Shown here in pieces: positions 1,551 through 30,872 of a stretch of DNA of 30,872 nt. Made by a program: the position numbers and the translations under genes. Below the pieces are notes generated by a model. It ran no database searches and had not been told where the DNA came from. It saw only the letters and a list, made by a program, of their open reading frames with translations. Position 1 is the stretch's first letter, and each line of letters begins with the position of its first letter. Origin of the DNA: a virus (Duplodnaviria; Heunggongvirae; Uroviricota; Caudoviricetes); IMG/VR virus record IMGVR_UViG_2657245091_000018; one strand, written 5' to 3'.

Positions 1551-2441
1551 ATGATTCGATCTCTCGTTAAATGGCCCGGTGGTAAAGGCCGCGTTATGCC
1601 TGATTTGCTGCCGATTCTGCCGAAAGCCGATTGCCTGGTGGAACCGTTTGTCGGCGGTGCTTCTGTTTTCCTCAATACTGAATATCGCCGTTATATCCTG
1701 GGTGATATCAACCCAGATTTAATTAACCTGTATCGCCAGATAACCCGCTGGCCTGATGCGGTGATCGACGCTGCTCGCCCACTGTTTAAAGTGTACGGCG
1801 ATAAAGACGGCTATAAGTGGATCCGCGATGATTTCAACGCCCGCGCCCGTGACCTACTGTCATTGCGCAGTGTGTTTGAAGATGGGCCGGACGCGGGCAA
1901 GATTCTTCGTGCAGCACAATTTCTTTACCTGAACCGTCACGGATATAACGGCGTAGTACGCTACAACCAACAGGGTGGATATAACGTTCCCTTTGGGCGT
2001 CACAAAACCCCGCCTTACTTCCCGGAAGAACAAATCCGTTTATTCTCTGAAAAAGCTAACGACACGAAAGCTATTTTCGTGTGCTGCGATTTCCAGAGCA
2101 CGTTAAAAATCATGATTGGTAGTGACGCGGTTATCTATTGCGATCCGCCATACCTGCCAACAAGCGAAACCGCTAATTTCACCCAATACCACACCGCCCC
2201 GTTTGGGATTAAAGAGCATCGCCAGTTAGCTGCCGCTCTGCTGGATATTAACCGCCTTACTGGTTCGCCGGTGATCCTGTCCAATAGCGACACCCCAGCC
2301 ACCTGCGAGATTTATCGCTCTTTCAACTTCCAGGAAATTAGCGTTAACCGTTCTGTCAGCGCGAACGCCATTACCCGAGGGGCCGCCAGTGAGGTGATCG
2401 GTATTCTCAAGGTTGCGACTTCTACGGGCATATGTGAATGA
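1551..2441 (+). CDS. dam: Dam-type DNA N6-adenine methyltransferase (GATC-type, D12 class), phage-encoded orphan
   Basis: Collinear by eye with E. coli Dam: VKWPGGK, CLVEPFVGGASVFLNT (FxGxG AdoMet site), FLYLNRHGYNGVVRYN, YNVPFGRHKTPPYFPEE, IYCDPPYLP (DPPY catalytic motif), ANFTQYHT, ILSNSDT. SD GGAGAAAG lies upstream. Its stop overlaps the next start (ATGA at 2438-2441). Confidence 0.95.
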   Translation: MIRSLVKWPGGKGRVMPDLLPILPKADCLVEPFVGGASVFLNTEYRRYILGDINPDLINLYRQITRWPDAVIDAARPLFKVYGDKDGYKWIRDDFNARARDLLSLRSVFEDGPDAGKILRAAQFLYLNRHGYNGVVRYNQQGGYNVPFGRHKTPPYFPEEQIRLFSEKANDTKAIFVCCDFQSTLKIMIGSDAVIYCDPPYLPTSETANFTQYHTAPFGIKEHRQLAAALLDINRLTGSPVILSNSDTPATCEIYRSFNFQEISVNRSVSANAITRGAASEVIGILKVATSTGICE

Positions 2442-5050
2442 CTAACGCTTTCGCATGGCCTTGGAACGCACCGCGTCCAGCTGTTGGCCCGTACATCTAT
2501 GAACCGAAAAAAATCGCCCCGCTTGCTGGGGCGGTGGCGCATCATCCTGCCGTAAAAAAACATATCGATCACATCTTCAAACGTGCCGGTTACAATCCCG
2601 CCGAAGTTCGTGACCGTGATGCGCTCATCCAGGCGCTGGACAGGTACGAACCATGCGGCCTGCCACTGGCCGCCCATCAAAATATAATCCGGCAAGAAAT
2701 GGAAGCCGCTAAAGCCACGGCGGCAGCCTGGGCCAATACGCCAGAAGGTGTCGAAGCACGTTTATTATCAGAGCCGTTCTTCATTCGTGAAGTCTGGCGT
2801 AAAAAAATTGAGTGGTTACGGGTCAACCGTGAAACCAGACACACCAATGATTTTCTTATGGGGACAGTGAAAAAATCATTGCTGCGTCTTGATGTTGTGC
2901 GCACAAGGCAAGGTGTTTCGCCTGATATCACCGGCGAACTGGCCGCGTACTGGTTCGGGCGCTGGCAACGGCTGGCTGATTTCACAAAGCGGGAAGCACT
3001 AAGCGCCGCTAATGAGATCGCCAGCCGCATGGCTGAAATGCTGGGGACGGAATGCGAAGCCCTGGGACAGAATGTTTCCGACATGAACGTCGAAGAACTG
3101 GACTGGCTTTATTGTCATCTGGGCCGCGAAATGCTGGCGCTTCGCATTGTGCCGCCTGCATGGTATGCGCCGTGGGAACGTGATCGGATATGTACGGCCA
3201 TTTTGCGTATGGCTTCGCCTGACTGGTGGGGGCGCAAAATCTGGCGCCTGCGTTGTGACTGGCGCGAAAACCAGCTGCGAGCCGTTGGCGCGGTAAATAA
3301 AAAAGCGCACGCATACGTTAGCGCTTCCAGCCTGATCGAGTGGCAGGAACAGCGCCGTAAAAACCGGGATTTTTTCAAAAGTCATGAACTGGTAGACGAA
3401 GACGGCAACGTTTCCTCACTTGAGGACATGATTAATAAATCCACGTCAAACCCGGCTATTCGTCGCCATGAGCTTATGGCCCGAATGGCTGGGGTTGAGC
3501 TTGTTGCCCAAAGTCGCGGCGATGTTGGCATCTTCCTGACAATCACTTGCCCGTCGAAATATCACAGTAATATTGCATCCGGCCACCATAACGCCAAATG
3601 GAATCATTCCACCGTCGCCCAGGCGCAGTGCTATTTATGCCGTGTGTGGAACCGGGCAACCGCCAAACTGAAACGCGAAGATTTGCGCCCTTATGGCTTC
3701 CGTGTCGCCGAGCCGCATCACGATGGGACACCACACTGGCACGCGTTGCTGTTTATGCCACAAGAGCAAGTCAAAGCCACGGTTGCGATCCTTCGCACCT
3801 ACTTCATTGCGGAAGACCGCGACGAGCTGGGCCGCAATACCGGCGCTCGTTTCAAGTCAAAAAAAATGGACCCACGGAAAGGGTCAGCAACGGCATACAT
3901 CGCTAAATACATTTCGAAGAATATCGACGGCCACGCGCTGGCCGGTGAACTGGACGACGAAAGCGGCAAGCCGCTGAATGAAAGCGCCAAATATGCAATG
4001 GCCTGGGCATCGCTTCACCGTATCCGCCAGTTTCAGCCCATCGGACAGCCGCCCATATCGGTTTACCGCGAGCTGCGCAAACTTAGTAATCAGATCACGA
4101 CCCGACAGAAAATTGACAGTACCTTCAAACGTGGTGCGCCATTGCTTGTGGATCCTGCAATGGATGCGGTTTGCGCCGCTGCCGATGTCGGATGCTTTGC
4201 TACTTACATCATCCGCCAGGGTGGTGTTTTGATCCCGCGAGAAAACTATGTCGTCCGTCTGGCCTATCAGCCCGCTGATGAAATGAATGCTTATTGTGAG
4301 ATCCCCGAAAAGGTTTTCGGGGTCTGGTCGCCGCGTCTGGGGGATGCCTCCCGTATTTGCACCCGTCTGGTTAAGTGGAAAATTCGAGCCAAATCCAAAA
4401 CCGTCACTGGGGCCAAAAGCGGCCCCGGTTTGGGGGTTGACCTTTTGCCGTCGCCAACCGGCGACGCTTGGAGTTCTGTCAATAACTCTACGGAAGACGA
4501 AAAAATCACCGATTTTTCGCCTGGTGTGGAGGGTATTACAGAAGAATCAGAAGAGGAAATCGTCGATTTTGAAAATATGGACCAGCCAACGCGGCGCAAA
4601 TTGATACGGCGACTACGTGAAGCACCATTCAAAAGGCGGCACAGCGGATCACCTTATGAACCAGGGAGCGAATTAGATGTTGCCTGGCGTTCTGCCGTGG
4701 AAAAAACCGAGGCCAGATCGGTGGCTGATAAAGCCAGGCGGGCAGCGCTTGCCCCTGCGGTTGCCAGTCTGCTGGCTGATGCGGCGTTGTGTTTGGTTGA
4801 GATTTCAGAGATTCAGGCCGTTTCGCTGTTAATGGGGAGCCGTCTGGAGATTGGCGGGAAATTTTATCAAGCCAGTGCTGGCGGCCAGTTGATAACGCGT
4901 CAATTACCTAATGAGTCACGGACGGTGAATAAATTATGGGAACATTTACGGGATAACCACGGCATTGATGCCACGCACCTGCGGTTTGATCCGGTCGGGG
5001 AATATCAAAAAATGCTGGCGGGTGCGGAAGGTCGCTACCCTAAAGAATGA
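2438..5050 (+). CDS. P2 gpA-family replication initiation endonuclease (rolling-circle, HUH class), 870 aa
   Basis: HUH-type metal motif GTPHWHALLF and the paired catalytic tyrosines YIAKY (ATAYIAKYISKNIDG), as in P2 gpA. Size and position (after early ORFs, before the head genes) match the P2 family. Translationally coupled to dam. Confidence 0.9.
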   Translation: MTNAFAWPWNAPRPAVGPYIYEPKKIAPLAGAVAHHPAVKKHIDHIFKRAGYNPAEVRDRDALIQALDRYEPCGLPLAAHQNIIRQEMEAAKATAAAWANTPEGVEARLLSEPFFIREVWRKKIEWLRVNRETRHTNDFLMGTVKKSLLRLDVVRTRQGVSPDITGELAAYWFGRWQRLADFTKREALSAANEIASRMAEMLGTECEALGQNVSDMNVEELDWLYCHLGREMLALRIVPPAWYAPWERDRICTAILRMASPDWWGRKIWRLRCDWRENQLRAVGAVNKKAHAYVSASSLIEWQEQRRKNRDFFKSHELVDEDGNVSSLEDMINKSTSNPAIRRHELMARMAGVELVAQSRGDVGIFLTITCPSKYHSNIASGHHNAKWNHSTVAQAQCYLCRVWNRATAKLKREDLRPYGFRVAEPHHDGTPHWHALLFMPQEQVKATVAILRTYFIAEDRDELGRNTGARFKSKKMDPRKGSATAYIAKYISKNIDGHALAGELDDESGKPLNESAKYAMAWASLHRIRQFQPIGQPPISVYRELRKLSNQITTRQKIDSTFKRGAPLLVDPAMDAVCAAADVGCFATYIIRQGGVLIPRENYVVRLAYQPADEMNAYCEIPEKVFGVWSPRLGDASRICTRLVKWKIRAKSKTVTGAKSGPGLGVDLLPSPTGDAWSSVNNSTEDEKITDFSPGVEGITEESEEEIVDFENMDQPTRRKLIRRLREAPFKRRHSGSPYEPGSELDVAWRSAVEKTEARSVADKARRAALAPAVASLLADAALCLVEISEIQAVSLLMGSRLEIGGKFYQASAGGQLITRQLPNESRTVNKLWEHLRDNHGIDATHLRFDPVGEYQKMLAGAEGRYPKE

Positions 5051-5054
5051 ATTA

Positions 5055-5126
5055 AATCACGCTATCCGTCGCAGCTGGTTGCGTCGGATAGCGTGATTCT
5101 GCGGGGGCGGGCGGCAAAGAGCCCGC
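5055..5126 (+). terminator. Long hairpin plus second GC hairpin just downstream of the replication gene (possible terminator; cos-like G-run, see findings)
   Basis: A perfect 14-bp inverted repeat, AATCACGCTATCCG (5055-5068) / CGGATAGCGTGATT (5085-5098), has an inner extension CGCA/TGCG. It is followed by GCGGGC (5107-5112) - N8 - GCCCGC (5121-5126) and then ATTT. The T-tract is weak, so terminator function is uncertain. Confidence 0.35.
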
Positions 5127-5347
5127 ATTTGAGTTCTGTCAGCGCGATGCCCCTAATCCAATATCTAAATATGCAGTTACGGCATAATGTTAATAGCGGT
5201 CATATTCGGTATGCTCCAGTTAGAAACTACGCTGCGATGTTAAAGATGAGTGATACAAGTGAGTGGGCTAGGCTGTTTGACTCAGCAGAGTAAAGAGGTA
5301 ATCTTGTTTAAGACAAGTTTCAAGATAGAATGATTAATGTTATTTGA

Positions 5348-5383
5348 AGATTTATGTAATACAATATCATTGCAGAGATTTTT
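5348..5383. repeat. Left copy of the imperfect direct repeat bracketing the cargo ORF
   Basis: AGATTTATGTAATACAATATCATTGCAGAGATTTTT. It aligns with 8201-8235 through shared blocks AGATT, ATGTAAT, TATCATTG and AGAGATTT (about 28 identities, one 3-nt indel). It ends 32 nt upstream of the ATG at 5415. Confidence 0.7.
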
Positions 5384-5414
5384 AGATAATTGATAAATCA
5401 TGTTGTCTTATTAA

Positions 5415-8207
5415 ATGTGGGGTCTGATTTTGGAAAGAAAAATTATTTTTAATAATGGTTTTTTAAGTATAAATAGGGAAGTTATAATTATCTTCTTGAT
5501 CTACTTTATTCTGGTCGGGTTGGGTATTTCCGGTGTAATCTACTCTAGATATGTTGATGAAGGGGTAAAGTATTTACTTGTAACACCATCTTTTCTCAAT
5601 AATTCCCCATTGAATTGGACTACTAGTGTTTGGGCGGGAGTTTTAGGCATACATGGAACTATTGCTGCACTATCAATTACATTTATGGGAATGTTTGTTA
5701 GTCAGGTTTCTAATTATTCTGAACATGGCTTTGAAAATATTTGTAAGTCGATGTTGTTGCGGAAAACTAGTTTTTTAAAGTTTAGTTTAAATTCTATTTT
5801 TAGTCTTTTAAGTGGTATCGTATTGCTTTCATGTGGTGGCGGCATGATTACTTATGCTATATCCATTTTTGTATCGTTATACTTTATTTTTAATTATGGT
5901 TCAATGTATCTGAAATTATATAATGTTACTGAGAATCCAACTATAATAACTGATCGTTTATTTTTTGAGCTTGATAAGGCTAAAAATGATTATTTATTGA
6001 TTGACGAACGTAGAAGAACTATAGAAAATAAATTTTTAAACATGATTAATGATTTTGAATATATTCATTATGGGTGGGATTCCGATTTTATCAATAAAGG
6101 ACAACGTAAGTTAAATATTTTCCAAAATAATCAAAATGTCATTATTAATGATTTTTGTCCAATTTGCTTTAAAGAAATTAACAATGAGCTAGAGCGTTTT
6201 TCGAAAGTGGTACGTACTGATTTACGCGTGAATCTTAACTTTATATATCCACTATCAACCTCATCGGTTCATATTGAAGTGCAAGATGGAGCGTCGATCG
6301 ATGAGCTATTAATTAGTAATGTTACAAAACTATTGAAAAAAGGATTGGTGTTCAGTTCAGCTCCTGAAAGCTTCTTGAATTACGGTAAGTATGAAGATGC
6401 AGTAGTTATTAGCTTAAGAAATAGTCTTTTTAGTGGTAATGAGTTAGCGTTAGATTTTAGCATAAGAGCTATCTTCACATTAGTTAGTGAAACTGAATTA
6501 GTTAAAGTAATACATAACCTCAATCACTCTTTTGGTTATACTAACAAAAAAAATAATATAGAGTATTCAATTTTTGCTGCTTTTTATATGAAGGTTAGTT
6601 CTGAAGTGAGTGGGTATAAAAACTATAATATAGTGTGTGATGCTCTTCGATCGATTATGGATTTGGGAAGGTATATTTATGATAATGAGCAATATGATGA
6701 ATTTTATAAATTGATATCACCGTCATTGGAACATCGTGCTCAATATAGTTTAGGTGATCCAGAATATCGTTTTTTTGATTTATATATGTCAACGGTGAGA
6801 GACAACATCTTGTCAAAGAATTATTTGGCATTTAGCCTGAATACTCGATTCTTGACTGAGAAATTTCGTTATCCAGAGTCATCTGATGATGGCGAAACCC
6901 TTAGTATCATTGAGAACAAGATGGTATCGTGTGTAAGACAGGTTATAACTTTACTGATTATTAGGCTGTGCTATTTATCTGAAAAAAGTGATGGGCATCA
7001 GGAGGAATTGAGAATAATAAAACAGAATTTAATGAAATGGTTAGCACCTTCATTCCTAGAAGATCTTTTTTATAAGAGTGGCGTGTATGATGTTATATTT
7101 ACAGTCCCATCTGAACCTGATTTTGATGCAAGTAGAACTTTAAGAGATATACCTGATTATGAGGTTGCAACCTTTTCAATAAATAACGATGCTTTCAAAG
7201 CAGTATCCCTTTTAATGACTCAAACATTATTTAATAAAAACAACTTCAATCCTATTTTTATACGTAATAAAAAAGAGTTTATTAAAAATACAAAAATAAC
7301 AACTCATGAACTGCAATCACTTATATCATATTTGAAAGGTGATGAATTTTCAGCTTTATTAGAGTTGATTAATGAAGGATCTTCTCAAGAAACAAATCGG
7401 ATGGAGGTTGCAGAGCATCTTGAAAGTATAATTTCTGTAAAAAATGAATTAATCGCAAATTCTATTGTTTCTTCTGACCTTGATAAGGTTCTGGTTAATA
7501 AATACATAGATAAAGTATCAATATCATTAGGTGGGTATTTTAATAAATTCGTAGATATTGATTCTATTCCTGTGTCAAATTCAGTTGTCTGCAATCCATT
7601 CTATTCATTGATTAATAAGAGAGAAGTCTTGCAGTCAATTGATAAAGTGCATTATTCAATGAATAGTTCACATCATGCTGAAGTGTTTGTCTATGCTTGG
7701 CTTCATAAAATGCTTGATGGAATTAAAGGCCAATATAAAGATGTAAATGAGATCGAAGATGTAAGTGAACTACCTTCCGATAAGCTTATAACAATTCATT
7801 ACATGGTTAAAGGAGAGGCAAGTGTTTACCGTTACTCAAAAGGTATGAGAATAACAGATTCAAAAGGAGTTTTGGGTTTGGGGTCTCCTGGTCTTTACTA
7901 CATGGATTTTTTGAGCGTATTTTCCTGTCTGCGGAATACTAATTTATTTGATTTGAAAATTGAAAGTATTTCTGATGAGAATATTTCCTTAGTTAAGGGG
8001 TTGTATAATTTCAAGGATGAAAATCCATTGATGTACGCGCTGATGTCTATTAGGATTAATTTGGAATTTATTAATAACGATGGCTTGTCGTTTTATTATA
8101 TTTCTGTAGATAGTTGTAAAAAAATCACTGCATTACATGAACAAAAACTTCGTCTATCTTTTAATGATAAAAAACCAATGGATGATATTGGTGAACTTTC
8201 AGATTAA
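5415..8207 (+). CDS. Large membrane-anchored protein of unknown function (930 aa); candidate hotspot-encoded anti-phage or exclusion protein
   Basis: An uninterrupted 2793-nt ORF in roughly 25-30% GC DNA is unlikely by chance, because stop codons are AT-rich. Hydrophobic helices lie at residues ~23-43, 69-95, 123-140 and 144-163 (nt 5481-5903). They are followed by ~765 aa of soluble N/K/I/S/E-rich sequence. I can recognise no Walker A, HNH/HxH, PD-(D/E)xK, Toprim, TIR or SIR2 signature. The ATG at 5415 directly follows an in-frame TAA and has no clear SD; TTG 5430, downstream of GGGG, is an alternative start. Confidence 0.85.
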   Translation: MWGLILERKIIFNNGFLSINREVIIIFLIYFILVGLGISGVIYSRYVDEGVKYLLVTPSFLNNSPLNWTTSVWAGVLGIHGTIAALSITFMGMFVSQVSNYSEHGFENICKSMLLRKTSFLKFSLNSIFSLLSGIVLLSCGGGMITYAISIFVSLYFIFNYGSMYLKLYNVTENPTIITDRLFFELDKAKNDYLLIDERRRTIENKFLNMINDFEYIHYGWDSDFINKGQRKLNIFQNNQNVIINDFCPICFKEINNELERFSKVVRTDLRVNLNFIYPLSTSSVHIEVQDGASIDELLISNVTKLLKKGLVFSSAPESFLNYGKYEDAVVISLRNSLFSGNELALDFSIRAIFTLVSETELVKVIHNLNHSFGYTNKKNNIEYSIFAAFYMKVSSEVSGYKNYNIVCDALRSIMDLGRYIYDNEQYDEFYKLISPSLEHRAQYSLGDPEYRFFDLYMSTVRDNILSKNYLAFSLNTRFLTEKFRYPESSDDGETLSIIENKMVSCVRQVITLLIIRLCYLSEKSDGHQEELRIIKQNLMKWLAPSFLEDLFYKSGVYDVIFTVPSEPDFDASRTLRDIPDYEVATFSINNDAFKAVSLLMTQTLFNKNNFNPIFIRNKKEFIKNTKITTHELQSLISYLKGDEFSALLELINEGSSQETNRMEVAEHLESIISVKNELIANSIVSSDLDKVLVNKYIDKVSISLGGYFNKFVDIDSIPVSNSVVCNPFYSLINKREVLQSIDKVHYSMNSSHHAEVFVYAWLHKMLDGIKGQYKDVNEIEDVSELPSDKLITIHYMVKGEASVYRYSKGMRITDSKGVLGLGSPGLYYMDFLSVFSCLRNTNLFDLKIESISDENISLVKGLYNFKDENPLMYALMSIRINLEFINNDGLSFYYISVDSCKKITALHEQKLRLSFNDKKPMDDIGELSD

Positions 8208-8235
8208 ATGTAATGTATCATTGTAGAGATTTATT
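8201..8235. repeat. Right copy of the imperfect direct repeat bracketing the cargo ORF
   Basis: AGATTAAATGTAATGTATCATTGTAGAGATTTATT. It includes the last codons and the TAA stop (8205-8207) of the 930-aa ORF. Fragments recur at 8403-8412 (ATGTAATGTA) and 8467-8476 (GATTTATGTA, identical to 5349-5358). Confidence 0.7.
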
Positions 8236-8367
8236 CTTACAGTGTTTGAACGCGTTTATTCACTAAGGATTGTTTCTATGTTGTTTATATAGGATATTGA
8301 TAGTGCGTAAAAGTATGATTTTATAATGTGTAGGCAATGGGCTGGATAGGGCAATCCTTTACTTATT

Positions 8368-8398
8368 TGAAAACCGCCGCAATTTGAATGTGCGGCGG
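8368..8398 (-). terminator. Rho-independent terminator of the terminase-portal-ogr-like leftward operon
   Basis: On the minus strand: CCGCCGCA - 9-nt loop - TGCGGCGG (perfect 8-bp GC-rich stem, 8374-8381 / 8391-8398), followed by TTTTCAAAT. It lies about 70 nt downstream of the stop at 8470. Confidence 0.65.
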
Positions 8399-8469
8399 AG
8401 GGATGTAATGTACATTAGGTGTTCAAAGGATTGATGCTTGCGCCGTACATCTATGTGTAGCAGTGGGAT

Positions 8470-8796
8470 TTATGTAGTTTGCCCACTGAGCAGGTCCAGC
8501 GCGAATTGACGTTCTTCCGGCTTGAGCCGGTCAATCAGGAATTTAACCAGCTTGTTGCCGGTCAGCCCGCTGGGGCTGAGGGTATGTGAAAACTCAACGC
8601 TATAAACAAATGTATGACCACATTCCACTTCTGTGCAGCCACAGTATAAAGACGCCAGTTTTTTATCTTTCCAGTCAGATTTGCGAATGATGGCCGGTGA
8701 GCCGCATTCAGGACATTTAATTTTAAAAACTCGCATGTTCACCATCCCGCACGCCATTGCTAATAATGGGGGGGATTTTAACTTAACTGCGCTCAT
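8470..8796 (-). CDS. Ogr/Delta-type zinc-finger late transcription activator homologue
   Basis: KCPECG...(x22)...CTEVEC gives C-x2-C-x22-C-x4-C, the spacing I recall for P2 Ogr. The long form (108 aa) starts at an ATG overlapping the portal stop (ATGA at 8793-8796). A shorter canonical form, MRVFKIKCPECG, would start at 8736 and is preceded by GGTG. Confidence 0.8.
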   Translation of the reverse strand: MSAVKLKSPPLLAMACGMVNMRVFKIKCPECGSPAIIRKSDWKDKKLASLYCGCTEVECGHTFVYSVEFSHTLSPSGLTGNKLVKFLIDRLKPEERQFALDLLSGQTT

Positions 8797-9854
8797 TTTT
8801 CGCCCTTTTCGGTGGCAATTGCCGGGATATCCACGTCAAAAACCAGGTGCAAGTGTGCGGGGATCTCCGGGTCATTATTGACGCCGTTCATTAGCTTGCG
8901 CTGCAAGGGGATAACTTCATCCTTGCGATAGGTTGTGCGGGCGGTTTCAGGGTTGCCCATTACCGCGCCGTTGGTCGGGATGATACCCGCCAGGCCAGCG
9001 GGGAAACGGTGGGCGGTAAAGATATCCTGCGCGGTTATCCCTTTGATGTTGGCAAATTCATCCTTTGCGCTGACTTCACCCACTGGCATGATTTTAACCC
9101 CTTCCGGGTCGCCCTTCGGGATGTTGATAAACATATTTCGGAAGTTACCCAGCCCTTTGGACTGGGCGATCTTCTCTTTGATTTCATTTTCCATTTCCAG
9201 CGTAAGATTCGGATCGCTGGTATAGAGAATAAAGCCCATATGTGCCCCATTATTGTAGTAACGGCGTCGGAAGATGGTTGCCTCACTGTTGAGTAACACC
9301 GAATGGATGCCGCCGATATAGTCAGGCAGGCCATACACCTGCTGGCGCGGGTCGTACATTTTAAAAAAGACGATGTCTTCCGGTTCATAGATAAGTGCTG
9401 GCCCTTCCTGCAAAACAGCAAACGCCCCGTCTTTTCGGCAGCGCAGATACAGCGACGGCAGCGGCAGCAGGTCGATCACTTCCCCGAATACGTTACGAAT
9501 TTTCAGGATAGCGACGTCACCAAACAGCAGGTAATCAAAGACAGCCTGTTCGACCTGGTCAGGCGTCAGGCCGCCGCCGATGTAGCCACCGGCAACCATA
9601 TTGCGCCGCGCATACAGTACCCCACCGTGCTGGCCGTTAAGGTTCGGCAACTGGGCCAGCGCTAGGCGATCAATCGGGAGTCGCCAGTGGTCATACTCAT
9701 TGTCATACCAGATATTGTGATAATCAGTGCCGGTCGTCAGGATGGGTTCGGGTTCGCCAAATGTGATCACGCTTCCGCGCCCTGGCGTGAAGGATTCAAC
9801 CTTGCTGCCGGTCATGGACCTGAATTTTTTATTATTACGCTGTTTCTTTGTCAT
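8793..9854 (-). CDS. Portal protein (P2 gpQ-like), 353 aa
   Basis: Size and position are those of P2 Q: downstream of the large terminase on the leftward late operon, with an ATGA overlap to the terminase stop at 9851-9854. The protein composition is well formed. Confidence 0.85.
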   Translation of the reverse strand: MTKKQRNNKKFRSMTGSKVESFTPGRGSVITFGEPEPILTTGTDYHNIWYDNEYDHWRLPIDRLALAQLPNLNGQHGGVLYARRNMVAGGYIGGGLTPDQVEQAVFDYLLFGDVAILKIRNVFGEVIDLLPLPSLYLRCRKDGAFAVLQEGPALIYEPEDIVFFKMYDPRQQVYGLPDYIGGIHSVLLNSEATIFRRRYYNNGAHMGFILYTSDPNLTLEMENEIKEKIAQSKGLGNFRNMFINIPKGDPEGVKIMPVGEVSAKDEFANIKGITAQDIFTAHRFPAGLAGIIPTNGAVMGNPETARTTYRKDEVIPLQRKLMNGVNNDPEIPAHLHLVFDVDIPAIATEKGEK

Positions 9855-11662
9855 GCTGCTTTCCCAAAGTACCAGCCCGATGGGCGGTCATATTCGTGAT
9901 CGATAGGTTCGTTAATTACGGCGTGCGAGATAGCGAAGAAAACATCTGCATGGCCGGTCGCGTCTGAACGTTCGGCAACAAACGTCAGCGCGTTGCCGCT
10001 GTTGGTTGTCGTGCGCCGGATAGCCATAAAGCTGGGCGGAATTTCGACGCGCTCTTTGTTCGTTTCGTCTACGGCGTCTTTTGCCCATTCGATGCGCTTA
10101 CGCTCGACAACGTCGATCATCTTCATTACCAGACGGTTTTTGCTTTCGACGCTGTAAAGAATGGGTGTGGCTTCGCGCGGTGCAAACTTGCTGACCAGGT
10201 CATAAACGCCCTTACCAATGCCGGTTGTATCGATCCCGATGTAAGTGATGTTAAAGCGGCGCATAAGCTGCTTTATCTGGTCGGCCTGCCAGCTGAAGTT
10301 AAAGCCCTGCCATTGCCAGACGGCCAGCACGCGGAAGCGCTCGCCGTCCTCTATGGGGGGCGCGATTAACACAAAGGTGGAGTTGTCGCCGGATCGTGAC
10401 GGGTCAAAGCCTGCCCATACTTCGCGATTGCCGAAGGGCCGCGCAGCGGTCAGATCAAAGTCGCCCCATGTGGCCCGGTCCACTTCGCAGCCGACAAGCG
10501 CGGAGAACTTGAACACCGCGTCCTTACTGTCAACAAACTGGCACATGTAGAGCATGGCGAACGCGGTCGGGCTGTATTTGTTGCGCAGCCGTTCAATATC
10601 GACAAGCGCACCGAGGCCACCTTCGATAGCGTCTTCCATCGTTATGATGTAGCGCCAGATCTGGTCCGGGCAGAGAATACCCTGGCGCATTTCGCTTTCT
10701 GTCGGGAACGCCACACCTTTGCGTTTCGGGTCGTCCCCGCGCCAGGCTTCGCCAGTCCATACCGGGTAAGCCTGGTGCGTTTTCGCGCTGGGCGTCGAAA
10801 AGTAGGTCGTCCGGTATTTGTTATGCGTTGCCATTGCGCTGGCAACTTCGTGCAGGCGCGTGAACTTCGGGATCCAGAAAACCTCATCGCCATACAGGTG
10901 GCCGTTAAAGCCCTGCGCGGTGCTGGCGTTCGTGGACAAAAAGCGCAGTATTGCGCCGTTGCTGAGGCGGATATTTTTACCCGTCAGCGTCACGCCGAAA
11001 TGGTTCTGGGCGATCTGGACGATGTATTCACGGAAGATTTCAGACTGGGAGCGGCTTGCAGAGAAAAAGACCTGGTTATCACCGGTAATGACAGCATCTT
11101 CGAATGCCTCCCAGGCGAAATAATAGGTCATGCCGACCTGTCGGCTTTTCAGAATGAAGCGCCAGTCTTCGCCTTTATGTTCGCGGCAGTGCAGCTGGTA
11201 CTCGAAGAGATGTTCCCGCGCCCAGGTGTCGAGCATTTCCGGTGTAATACCGGAAACGTCGTTTTTCTTATACCGGCGCTTTCTTTCCTCTGGTTCCCCG
11301 CCTGCGCTGCTGAGGCAGTACCCTTCACCATCATAAGCCGCTTTCTGGGCCTGAATTTCTGCCAGCTTTTCGGCGTGTTTGTTGCGCTGCGCCATGAGTT
11401 TCACATGGTGAGCAATCAGATCGCGCAGTTCTTCCAGTTCCAGCGCTGTTTTTTTCTCGCGGCGGGAGAGCTGGTCGATACGGCGGGCGATGACATTTTC
11501 CACCGATTCAACAGGCAGCAGTGATGCCCACTTCCCGACATCAGCCCAGTGGTAAATTGTACGCGGTGGAATATTCAGTTCCTGCGCAATATCTTTCGGC
11601 GTCCAGCTTTTCATATAAAGCGTGCGGGCCGCTTCTTTTAATTCATCGGAATATTTAGCCAT
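9851..11662 (-). CDS. Terminase large (ATPase) subunit (P2 gpP-like), 603 aa
   Basis: N-terminal HTH-like segment (WTPKDIAQELNIPPRTIYHW). Terminase Walker-A variant ILKSRQVGMTYYFA. Divergent from the scaffold/capsid operon, as for P2 P/O. Confidence 0.9.
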   Translation of the reverse strand: MAKYSDELKEAARTLYMKSWTPKDIAQELNIPPRTIYHWADVGKWASLLPVESVENVIARRIDQLSRREKKTALELEELRDLIAHHVKLMAQRNKHAEKLAEIQAQKAAYDGEGYCLSSAGGEPEERKRRYKKNDVSGITPEMLDTWAREHLFEYQLHCREHKGEDWRFILKSRQVGMTYYFAWEAFEDAVITGDNQVFFSASRSQSEIFREYIVQIAQNHFGVTLTGKNIRLSNGAILRFLSTNASTAQGFNGHLYGDEVFWIPKFTRLHEVASAMATHNKYRTTYFSTPSAKTHQAYPVWTGEAWRGDDPKRKGVAFPTESEMRQGILCPDQIWRYIITMEDAIEGGLGALVDIERLRNKYSPTAFAMLYMCQFVDSKDAVFKFSALVGCEVDRATWGDFDLTAARPFGNREVWAGFDPSRSGDNSTFVLIAPPIEDGERFRVLAVWQWQGFNFSWQADQIKQLMRRFNITYIGIDTTGIGKGVYDLVSKFAPREATPILYSVESKNRLVMKMIDVVERKRIEWAKDAVDETNKERVEIPPSFMAIRRTTTNSGNALTFVAERSDATGHADVFFAISHAVINEPIDHEYDRPSGWYFGKAA

Positions 11663-29906: not shown

Positions 29907-30872
29907 TTATAGAAGTTTACTTACTGAAATCAGTTTGGGTGATTTAATGCCAATCTCACATAATGTTGTATGATGTGCTTCACGCTCAGTTTCCTGATAA
30001 TAGGTGGCTATCCATTCCGTATTTTCACTAACAATGCTATGTATAAAAGAAAAGTAGGGAACATCTACAGATGATAACGAATGGCCGATGATGATGATTT
30101 CGTCTACGTTGCTGAGATTTTTAAAAAATTTAGCGCTGTCAGCAATGACTTTTTCAGTATTCTTAAAAGAACAAGTGAAGTATTTATTAATAGTCTGCTT
30201 TCCCATTTCATAAGAGTGATCGTAATTATCAGCCATACACTGACGCCACTCTTCAAGTTCTTCATCGGTTGCATTTTCGGGCGGGACTGCTTCCTTTTCT
30301 TCAAAGTTGATAGGGTCAATACCATGACCTAAAATCAACTGTTGATCTGATGATGCTTTTCCATGGATATATAAAATTTGTCTATCATCAATACCATAGT
30401 ATTTCTGAAGAGTCTCAGTATAATTAAAACTGATAAAGATAGAGTCAGAATCGATACGCAATCTTTTATTTAAATTAAGTTCGGGGTAGTTAACCTGCAA
30501 TATAAATGACTTGAATTGTGTTAAAAGCCCTTCGGTTAAATTTTTTAGTATACGTTCCATTTCAATGCTTAATGAGCCCCAGTCCTTGTCACGAAAATCA
30601 GGGCTGCTAATTTGGGGTAAAAGATAGCAAAACTCTTCGAGCACTGACTCTGTATCCAGACCCGCTAAGCTGTTTTCGAAATCAGACCAAAGAAAATGTT
30701 TTGACTTATCAACTGCGGAAAGTTTAGGGGGTAAGTCAGTAAATCCCATAAAATCAACCAAGTGATCGTAAATGTCTTGGTCTTTCTTCCGAAGATAATC
30801 CCCAAATGAGAAATAGCTCGTGTCAAGTTCGTGATGCAGATCAAACCCATTCCCGATGATGTATAGCTTCAT
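29907..30872 (-). CDS. abiH: AbiH-family abortive infection protein, 321 aa
   Basis: The N-terminus MKLYIIGNGFDLHHELDTSYFSFGDYL matches the hallmark IIGNGFDLxHGLxTSYxDF start of the AbiH family (Pfam AbiH, from memory). The gene is AT-rich. Its ATG is the last triplet of the window, so its promoter lies outside. Confidence 0.8.
   Translation of the reverse strand: MKLYIIGNGFDLHHELDTSYFSFGDYLRKKDQDIYDHLVDFMGFTDLPPKLSAVDKSKHFLWSDFENSLAGLDTESVLEEFCYLLPQISSPDFRDKDWGSLSIEMERILKNLTEGLLTQFKSFILQVNYPELNLNKRLRIDSDSIFISFNYTETLQKYYGIDDRQILYIHGKASSDQQLILGHGIDPINFEEKEAVPPENATDEELEEWRQCMADNYDHSYEMGKQTINKYFTCSFKNTEKVIADSAKFFKNLSNVDEIIIIGHSLSSVDVPYFSFIHSIVSENTEWIATYYQETEREAHHTTLCEIGIKSPKLISVSKLL

Follow-up and report, generated by a model that had tools for sequence, protein, structure and literature searches.

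Imperfect direct repeats flanking a cargo gene in a P2-family prophage of Escherichia coli and the mosaic cassette in which they lie

The stretch of viral DNA analyzed here, which is 30,872 nucleotides (nt) long and is referred to as the window (IMG/VR record IMGVR_UViG_2657245091_000018, Caudoviricetes), raises the question of what two imperfect direct repeats of about 35 base pairs (bp), one located ahead of a cargo gene and the other across its stop codon, tell about how that gene came to its present place. The window is a P2-family prophage of Escherichia coli of an Irrigatiovirus-like (SI7/SW5-like) type, in which the gene for the replication endonuclease gpA is followed by a variable slot, an ogr/Delta-like gene on the minus strand, and the portal and terminase genes. 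The slot contains an open reading frame (ORF) of 930 amino acids, hereafter the cargo ORF. The original prediction, which had noticed the repeats from the sequence alone, offered three explanations: the left copy could be the remnant of an earlier cargo gene's 3' end, the pair could be the scars that delimit the cassette, or both copies could be a shared regulatory element. Comparisons with related loci lead us to prefer, tentatively, a fourth explanation, in which the copies would be non-functional debris within a mosaic cassette, that is, decayed duplicates of one short relic stretch and not its borders. Chance likeness in AT-rich DNA is the close rival of this explanation.

The repeat copies and the borders of the cassette

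The left copy (AGATTTATGTAATACAATATCATTGCAGAGATTTTT), the right copy (AGATTAAATGTAATGTATCATTGTAGAGATTTATT) and the shorter echoes (ATGTAATGTA at 8208 and 8403; GATTTATGTA at 5349 and 8467) were all located in the window as had been predicted, and the right copy does contain the stop codon of the cargo ORF (TAA, 8205-8207). Between the left copy and the ATG of the ORF at 5415 there are 31 nt; the RefSeq annotation uses a TTG start at 5430. In the best local alignment of the two copies (Smith-Waterman scoring +2/-3/-5/-2; score 33) there are 28 identities, as had been counted before, but the single 3-nt indel of the original prediction was found to be two indels, of 1 nt and 3 nt. The copies are in direct orientation and about 80% identical, with indels. 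A gap-free repeat finder returned a 17-mer core only (16 of 17 positions identical), together with many pairs of similar size elsewhere in the AT-rich island.

The borders of the cassette were defined with 58 related loci from IMG/VR, collected with the ogr protein as the anchor; gpA and ogr were located in each of them and compared with the window. On the gpA side, the nucleotide identity to the relatives is about 90% and the homology ends at 5125-5130 in about 30 loci with the same gpA type, directly 3' of a conserved inverted repeat (5055-5098) and the GC hairpin GCGGGCGGCAAAGAGCCCGC (5107-5126). On the ogr side, about 40 loci are again homologous to the window from 8469 on, which is one base ahead of the ogr stop codon, with 80-91% nucleotide identity. 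The DNA between these points (5131-8468) has nothing in common with any examined locus except the identical prophage, and its GC content is mostly 0.22-0.37 between about 5290 and 8340, compared with about 50-58% in the backbone. In the relatives, the slot ranges in length from 36 to 3419 bp and has diverse contents, among them a DNA methylase and several unrelated AT-rich ORFs, or none at all; in two loci (L037 and L043) it is empty, its 123 bp being made up of the inverted repeat, the hairpin, a further 18 nt and a bidirectional terminator abutting ogr. The locus is a cargo hotspot of a P2-family prophage and is probably proximal to cos.

The two copies are located 218 bp (left) and 233 bp (right) inside these borders, and neither was found in any relative, loaded or empty (56 slots, 95.6 kb); the single copy at the junction for which the original prediction had proposed to look in relatives with other cargo or without cargo was present in none of these slots. 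No recombinase or transposase gene was found in or beside the cassette, which holds the 930-amino-acid ORF and relics only and whose neighbors are gpA and ogr. The proposal that the copies are scars delimiting the cassette fails by the refutation that the original prediction had itself named: the homology to relatives breaks at 5125-5130 and 8469, and not at 5348 or at 8201/8235, and no relative has the motif.

Searches for the cassette elsewhere led back to the same prophage. A chromosomal prophage with 99.9-100% identity to positions 4300-9900 is present in 19 of 5426 complete E. coli genomes, all 19 of which carry the same cargo, and these genomes gave no other occurrence of the cassette DNA. 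Plasmids and phages searched at blastn sensitivity, a 17-mer scan of IMG/VR and a pattern scan of metagenomes gave the same prophage or chance matches only, and a scan of genome contigs by cargo protein alignment revealed no other cassette context, just three distant loci. The pattern TTTGAAGATNTATGTAA was unspecific in IMG/VR, with 120 or more unrelated matches and no family member among them.

Relics in the two flanks

The left flank of the cargo ORF is built of relics. The 3' end of a foreign gpA gene of the P2/L080 type has been preserved as a small ORF (Table 1), which matches the gpA C-termini of the loci L080, L077, L005 and L004 by blastx (E=2e-11 to 1e-10), is found by blastn with 72.6% identity over 164 nt (E=2e-22), and shares 63% amino acid identity with the gpA of L080 versus 40% with the gpA of the window itself. 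These loci are P2-like phages that carry a homolog of the 930-amino-acid cargo, usually with a partner gene of about 180 amino acids ahead of it. The alignments run on from the gpA relic through the Shine-Dalgarno sequence and the first codons of this partner gene, in which the ATG has become a TTG at 5305. Beyond about 5312 the partner relic is ambiguous, as the partner start and codons 91-92 of the cargo both read ATGTTT, and the remainder of the partner gene is gone from the window.

As judged from DNA-level matches, the next stretch (5313-5378), within which the greater part of the left copy lies, probably represents a piece of a cargo-family gene. Its Smith-Waterman scores with L005, L080 and L004 are 39, 33 and 27 (p<0.002 to 0.015), only 1 of 644 natural AT-rich segments matches the cargo family as well, its translation contains frame-consistent blocks (QVS; FEDLCNTISLQRFL), and the codons to which it corresponds (about 96-117) are the most conserved segment of the cargo family. 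It was also the top match of a DNA profile of the family among 324 AT-rich segments, but at E=0.39-0.49. The best family match of the left copy itself is to codons ~107-118, in the N-terminal membrane region, and is not secure: in a rival match with a score of 38, positions 5303-5397 align with codons ~787-818 in a distant clade, and neither of these DNA-level matches was recovered when six-frame translations of the flanks were searched with a protein profile. A weak minus-strand match in the protein profile search (E=0.005, 4.3 bits), which conflicts with the DNA-level matches, was regarded as noise.

Other sources of the left copy were considered and rejected. The 3' end of the partner gene, where AGATT-ATGTA-TCATCG in L080 resembles the left copy by eye only, was ruled out by a DNA profile of five such 3' ends, which had no match in the window, and by Smith-Waterman comparisons (p=0.09-0.96). 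Homology to the partner 5' end running on through the left copy was not accepted either, since a lenient alignment that reached 5369 was not significant. No similarity was found between the left copy and the 3' ends of cargo homologs.

The right copy begins at 8201, the last base of a TCA codon after which all close homologs of the cargo ORF stop. In the multiple alignment the homologs end with TCA and a stop codon, whereas the window reads TCA GAT TAA, with the last codon and the TAA supplied by the right copy. The start of the right copy, which is no more than 1 nt from the point where the ORF ceases to be colinear with its homologs, favors a real junction; the similarity to the left copy ends 28 nt past the cargo stop. 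Further downstream, positions 8339-8411 are a relic of a terminator region, colinear with the region downstream of cos in phages of the L080 and L078 types (Smith-Waterman p<0.002 for L080 and p=0.006 for L078), and the hairpin at 8374-8398 (-15.8 kcal/mol, z=-3.6) reads as the terminator of the ogr/portal operon on the minus strand. In the L080/L078-type phages a cos core (GGTGACGGGGGGAAAGCCCGCG), which is similar to the P2 cohesive end (GGCGAGGCGGGGAAAGCAC), is located beside this terminator, and it is absent from the window, where the alignment has a gap. When window positions 8300-8345 are compared with L080 5925-5975 and L078 5915-5960, a stretch of about 17-23 nt with the cos core (CGGGGGAAAGCCCG) is seen to be gone; the missing core looks like a redundant second cos site that may have been disabled. 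The right flank has no similarity to the cargo family (all p>0.09), and the suggestion that it is a relic of the cargo membrane segment, which would speak for an insertion with target duplication, is unsupported by the same comparisons.

The cos site of the window itself is putatively the GC-rich hairpin at 5100-5126, which matches the P2 cos region (GGGCGAGGCGGGGAAAGCAC) at 25 of 35 positions and is the sole cos candidate that L037 and L043 have in their empty slots (123 bp). The inverted repeat and the next hairpin together have a predicted folding energy of -46 kcal/mol (z=-5.7), and both elements (5055-5126) are kept after gpA in all SI7-like relatives. If they are cos, the cargo slot of these phages would be located on the opposite side of cos from that of P2.

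The simplest history for this arrangement would be a cross between an L080-like phage and an SI7-like phage with a crossover in the 3' end of gpA. L080 combines a window-type ogr/portal backbone (90% nucleotide identity from 8469) with a P2-type gpA, partner gene, cargo homolog and cos, and a phage arranged in this way (P2-type gpA, partner of about 180 amino acids, 930-amino-acid cargo, cos, terminator, ogr, portal) may have been the source of the cassette. The cargo would have been exchanged by recombination in or near the conserved backbone, at the cos-like hairpin (5100-5126) and the ogr stop (8469), and the crossover would have left two cos-like sites, one of which was then lost. The last ~45 codons of the foreign gpA and the start of the partner gene would have been retained, and the second cos would have lost its core and the partner gene its greater part. 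The left copy would then lie in a scrambled spacer, possibly in a fragment of an earlier cargo-family gene, and the right copy would have been joined exactly at the end of the present ORF, to which it gave its last codon and stop. One possible origin of the pair is an insertion of the present gene and its 31-nt leader into older DNA in which a short piece of the target was duplicated; another is a tandem duplication that later collapsed. A specific form of the former route, in which the present gene and its leader inserted into an older family copy at codons ~107-118, in its conserved membrane segment, and duplicated about 35 bp of target, so that the pair would be the footprint of its entry, seems unlikely. 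We infer both the direction of these rearrangements and the shared ancestry of the copies, as opposed to their chance likeness.

Common origin, coincidence and function

The rarity of the pair depends on the DNA with which it is compared. When the left flank (5294-5414) was compared with the right flank (8201-8469; 121 x 269 nt), dinucleotide shuffles gave a mean score of 19.3 (standard deviation 2.8) and reached 33 or more in 0.1% of 2000 cases, and in 0.3% in a second run; over the null models for the two flanks, p is about 0.0005-0.003. Natural AT-rich DNA of related phages reached 33 in none of 501 and none of 179 comparisons (maxima 28 and 32), and in the slot DNA of the 56 relatives, searched on both strands, the best match to either copy scored 25, compared with 33 for the pair and 70-72 for a copy matched with itself. 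Over the whole 3.1-kb AT-rich island, in contrast, 3 of 40 shuffled sequences (7.5%) contained a match of at least 33 somewhere. The shuffled-composition control proposed in the original prediction thus gave two answers, and the opinion expressed there that the 35-bp pair is hard to dismiss holds between the flanks and is weakened across the island.

Several observations weigh against a common origin of the copies and speak for coincidence, in which two low-complexity non-coding stretches with 23-37% GC would be alike by chance and would share neither history nor function; we consider this a serious possibility. The pair, which was chosen post hoc from a 30-kb window, is only the second-best self-match of the island, the best being one with a score of 35 at 6551/7274. 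The left spacer yields two mutually exclusive matches with scores of 38-39 to different parts of cargo-family genes, of which at least one must be spurious, and therefore p-values near 0.002 on this 23%-GC DNA are fragile; this suggests that chance similarity in such AT-rich DNA is more common than the null models indicate. The homology of the copies could not be extended past about 35 bp even with cheap gaps, and a longer gapped duplication was rejected, since the alignments that include a second colinear block (5398-5411/8275-8288) are less significant. The echoes are at chance level (P=0.11 for any 10-mer common to both flanks, P=0.08 for a 10-mer repeated in the right flank, and three occurrences of ATGTAAT versus 1.0 expected, P=0.08), in agreement with the caution of the original prediction that the 10-mers alone are weak, and in the last of them (8467-8476) 8 of 10 bases (8469-8476) belong to backbone that is conserved in relatives (TTTATGC..., the ogr stop and last codons). 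Furthermore, all copies of the cassette, in the 19 E. coli genomes and in IMG/VR and metagenome contigs, are 99.5-100% identical, so that neither common ancestry nor constraint can be assessed in an independent lineage. Nine sequence variants were found, and the four single-nucleotide polymorphisms in their non-coding flanks (5392, 5403, 8267 and 8457) are all outside the copies; only 0.7 would be expected inside, and the invariance of the copies is therefore uninformative. No intermediate form, such as a tandem copy, an intact older gene or a single-copy site, was found among the sequences searched. Against coincidence stand the rarity of the pair between the flanks, where 0.1-0.3% of shuffles and 0 of 680 natural AT-rich pairings score as high and the 95.6 kb of related slots offer no match above 25, and the start of the right copy exactly at the ancestral end of the ORF. 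Decayed relic debris is the explanation that we continue to prefer, at the tentative level stated above.

The remaining explanations give the copies a role or a more specific source. A shared cis-acting element, for example a site at which one protein or RNA binds 5' of the start and past the stop, or a weak hairpin with a U-rich tail in both untranslated regions that tunes expression or stability of the cargo mRNA, is in our estimate improbable. For each of the two copies the same small hairpin can be drawn, with the inner stem UGUAAU/AUUG(C/U)A, in which the C-to-U change keeps a G-U pair and the 3-nt indel falls in the loop, a U-rich run follows each copy, and the copies are invariant in all sampled genomes, which is uninformative as explained above. 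The predicted hairpins, however, are weak (-5 kcal/mol with z=-2.1 for the left copy and -1 kcal/mol with z=+0.9 for the right copy, which is no better than shuffles) and there is no common stable structure. Neither a sigma-70-like nor a terminator-like site overlaps either copy, Rfam has no match at E<=1 in 5000-8900, and no gene is located downstream of the right copy on its strand that it could regulate. No counterpart flanks the genes of 21 homologous loci, the starts of which mostly abut the partner gene: no repeat was detected between their upstream and downstream flanks (p=0.03-0.96, none above a score of 27), the window motif scores at most 20 in these flanks, and the possibility that such repeats are a property of the gene family was rejected. 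In the donor phages, the 5' end of the partner gene is not similar to the 3' end of the cargo gene. Inspection by eye against consensus sequences gave no convincing match to Xer/dif-like, IHF-like or P2 Ogr-box (TGT-N12-ACA) motifs. ToxI-type antitoxins of type III toxin-antitoxin systems form tandem arrays directly upstream of a small toxin gene (about 170 amino acids), with a terminator at the end; the window resembles them in the unit of about 35-36 nt beside a phage-defense-type gene and differs from them in that two single copies are found 2.85 kb apart around a gene for 930 amino acids, with no Rfam match. The regulatory proposal of the original prediction thus found no backing, and the copies are predicted to have no function beyond the supply of a stop codon by the right one.

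The original prediction had also read the left copy as a 3'-end relic of an older cargo gene; taken literally, this would mean that the left copy comprises the last codons, the stop and the 3' flank of a gene that once stood ahead of the present one. The right copy does span the end of the present gene, with similarity ending shortly past the stop, and relic DNA demonstrably surrounds the left copy; turnover of the cassette remains part of our explanation. The left flank, however, is similar neither as protein nor as DNA to the C-terminal region or downstream flank of any of the 53 homologous proteins or five donor loci, the bases just 5' of the left copy agree with the end of the ORF at chance level (3 of 8), any family match of the left copy is to codons ~107-118, and none of the 21 other loci has a tandem gene arrangement; it is very improbable that the left copy stems from such a 3' end. 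Recombination sites or a target-site duplication that delimits a mobile cassette are hardly credible. The direct orientation and the presence of one copy on each side of the only intact, acquired gene are what would be expected of target-site duplications or att repeats, but the copies are off the backbone junctions, are only about 80% identical with indels, have no recombinase or transposase in or beside the cassette and no counterpart in empty or differently loaded slots, and are far longer than transposon duplications.

The prophage, its cargo family and known hotspots

The features discussed are collected in Table 1. The flanks of the window are 93-95% identical to the Salmonella phages SW5, SW3 and SI7 (Peduoviridae, Irrigatiovirus). 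In the contigs L010, L011, L081 and L082, which are independent of one another, the match to the window starts only at 193, and a prophage end or another variable junction is probably located there. A gene for a D12-class N6-adenine DNA methyltransferase (1551-2441) is located directly 5' of gpA, where the donor-type phages L004-L006 and L079 also have one. A second defense-type cargo of the prophage, an AbiH-family abortive-infection gene (29907-30872, minus strand; Pfam AbiH E=2e-60), is found at the far end of the window. Three further observations concern the right flank. A near-consensus promoter-like pair, TTGATA-19 nt-TATAAT, is found on the plus strand toward ogr at 8297-8327, with a spacer one base over the limit of the scanner. 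A perfect 12-bp palindrome (TAATGTACATTA) is located at 8405-8416, just beyond the terminator hairpin. A conserved non-coding block with repeated TGCAC (...TGCAAGATACTGCACGATTTTGCACAAA...GTGCACAAAAAC...) occupies the first ~130 nt past the cargo stop, before cos, in L004, L005 and L077-L080, and has left a faint trace in the window at 8300-8320 only.

Table 1. Features of the cargo slot and its surroundings, in window coordinates
Feature	Position	Strand	Basis or remark
gpA replication endonuclease, resident SI7/SW5-type backbone	2438-5050	+	Pfam Phage_GPA E=3e-107; RefSeq 'replication endonuclease'
Inverted repeat, 19-nt arms	5055-5098		Directly after gpA; 95% complementary; present in relatives
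GC-rich cos-like hairpin (GCGGGCGGCAAAGAGCCCGC)	5100-5126		Last backbone element ahead of variable slot
Cargo cassette, content of hypervariable slot	5131-8468		Mostly AT-rich
Relic of foreign P2/L080-type gpA 3' end (last ~45 codons and stop)	5162-5293	+	Small ORF; blastx, blastn
Relic of partner-gene Shine-Dalgarno sequence and first codons	5294-5312	+	ATG to TTG at 5305; alignments run on from gpA relic
Possible decayed cargo-family fragment (codons ~96-117, QVSxYSExGFEDICKSxLLR)	5313-5378	+	Holds most of left copy
Left copy of ~35-bp imperfect direct repeat (AGATTTATGTAATACAATATCATTGCAGAGATTTTT)	5348-5383	+	
Cargo ORF, 930 amino acids, N-terminal membrane region	5415-8207 (RefSeq TTG start 5430)	+	Only intact gene of the slot
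Right copy of ~35-bp imperfect direct repeat (AGATTAAATGTAATGTATCATTGTAGAGATTTATT)	8201-8235	+	Cargo stop TAA at 8205-8207 inside
Relic of ogr/Q-operon terminator region, colinear with L080/L078-type phages	8339-8411	-	Hairpin 8374-8398, T-run on minus strand
ogr/Delta-like zinc-finger late activator	8470-8796 (RefSeq 8470-8745)	-	Pfam Ogr_Delta E=3.5e-16; RefSeq annotation
Portal gene	8793-9854		gpA and portal separated by slot and ogr

The cargo protein belongs to no Pfam, NCBIfam or PADLOC family, its phrogs (phrog_10073/18005) are listed as 'unknown function', and the family was not mentioned in the literature searched. An AlphaFold2 (AF2) model of the protein has a predicted local distance difference test score (pLDDT) of 83.6, and its structural neighbors are only generic helical-repeat proteins, which are uninformative. 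The family is restricted to Enterobacterales (53 clusters, identity 25-58%). The 21 homologous loci, 10 of them from protein look-ups and a genome scan and 11 more from IMG/VR, were examined for gene order (cargo-family loci include L004-L007, L074-L080 and L207-L217); in 18 of them the cargo homolog lies in the interval from gpA to the portal gene, and the partner gene of about 180 amino acids, which contains CxxC and is missing in the window, is often found ahead of it. From this gpA-portal position, the cargo gene is a reasonable candidate for an antiviral gene that resides in the hotspot. In L007, a Citrobacter portucalensis chromosome, a cargo homolog is found between clpA and a U32 peptidase gene in an island beside a gpA fragment (L007 3223-3861), which has 41% identity over 211 amino acids of the C-terminal part and is annotated as a 93-amino-acid ORF. 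This island is a decayed P2-like prophage in which the cargo gene was retained.

The anti-phage hotspot of P2-like phages that is proximal to cos is the tin/old locus between gpA and gpQ (Rousset et al. 2022, PMC9122126). The slot of the window resembles it in being hypervariable, often AT-rich and located between gpA and the portal gene beside a cos-like element, in having unrelated contents among similar phages, and in that the cargo family recurs at this place in many P2-like backbones. It differs from the P2 hotspot in that ogr is located between the slot and the portal gene, in that its cos-like hairpin lies between gpA and the cargo, unlike cos of P2 and of L080, which is on the portal side, and in that the cargo has no recognized defense domain and a putative antiviral role. 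It has been proposed that cargo exchange in P2-like hotspots involves an event initiated at a cos end and a homologous crossover (PMC9122126). It has also been reported that P2/P4 defense hotspots contain small intergenic pseudogene remnants, which were read as traces of intense recombination, and that replication genes are the core genes most often found as pseudogenes in defective elements (PMC13586616, 2026). Exchange through conserved flanking backbone fits the former proposal, and scraps in the flanks fit the latter report. Like those remnants, the non-coding scraps of the window resemble a core gene (gpA) and unknown genes in a defense locus; unlike them, the scraps are ordered colinearly with the donor (gpA end, partner start, cargo, terminator, with the cos core missing), and short debris is possibly duplicated on both sides of an intact gene. 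The hotspot, its position beside cos and the recombination scraps are thus already known; what is new is an instance in an Irrigatiovirus-like backbone with an uncharacterized cargo, and the repeat pair is not a new kind of feature.

With regard to the repeats themselves the result is mostly negative, in that they are not suited to define the borders of the cargo or to be annotated as sites. If the pair were the footprint of the entry of the present gene, cargo exchange in P2-like hotspots would use leftovers of earlier cargo as landing pads, a route about which there has so far been only speculation in the literature. The locus is, however, a clean worked example of turnover in a P2-family hotspot, with exact junctions at the cos-like hairpin and the ogr stop, in which the foreign gpA tail and the partner start reveal the type of the donor phage and a second cos site has apparently been disabled. 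Separately from the repeats, it draws attention to a family of membrane-anchored proteins of about 930 amino acids that is worth testing for antiviral activity.

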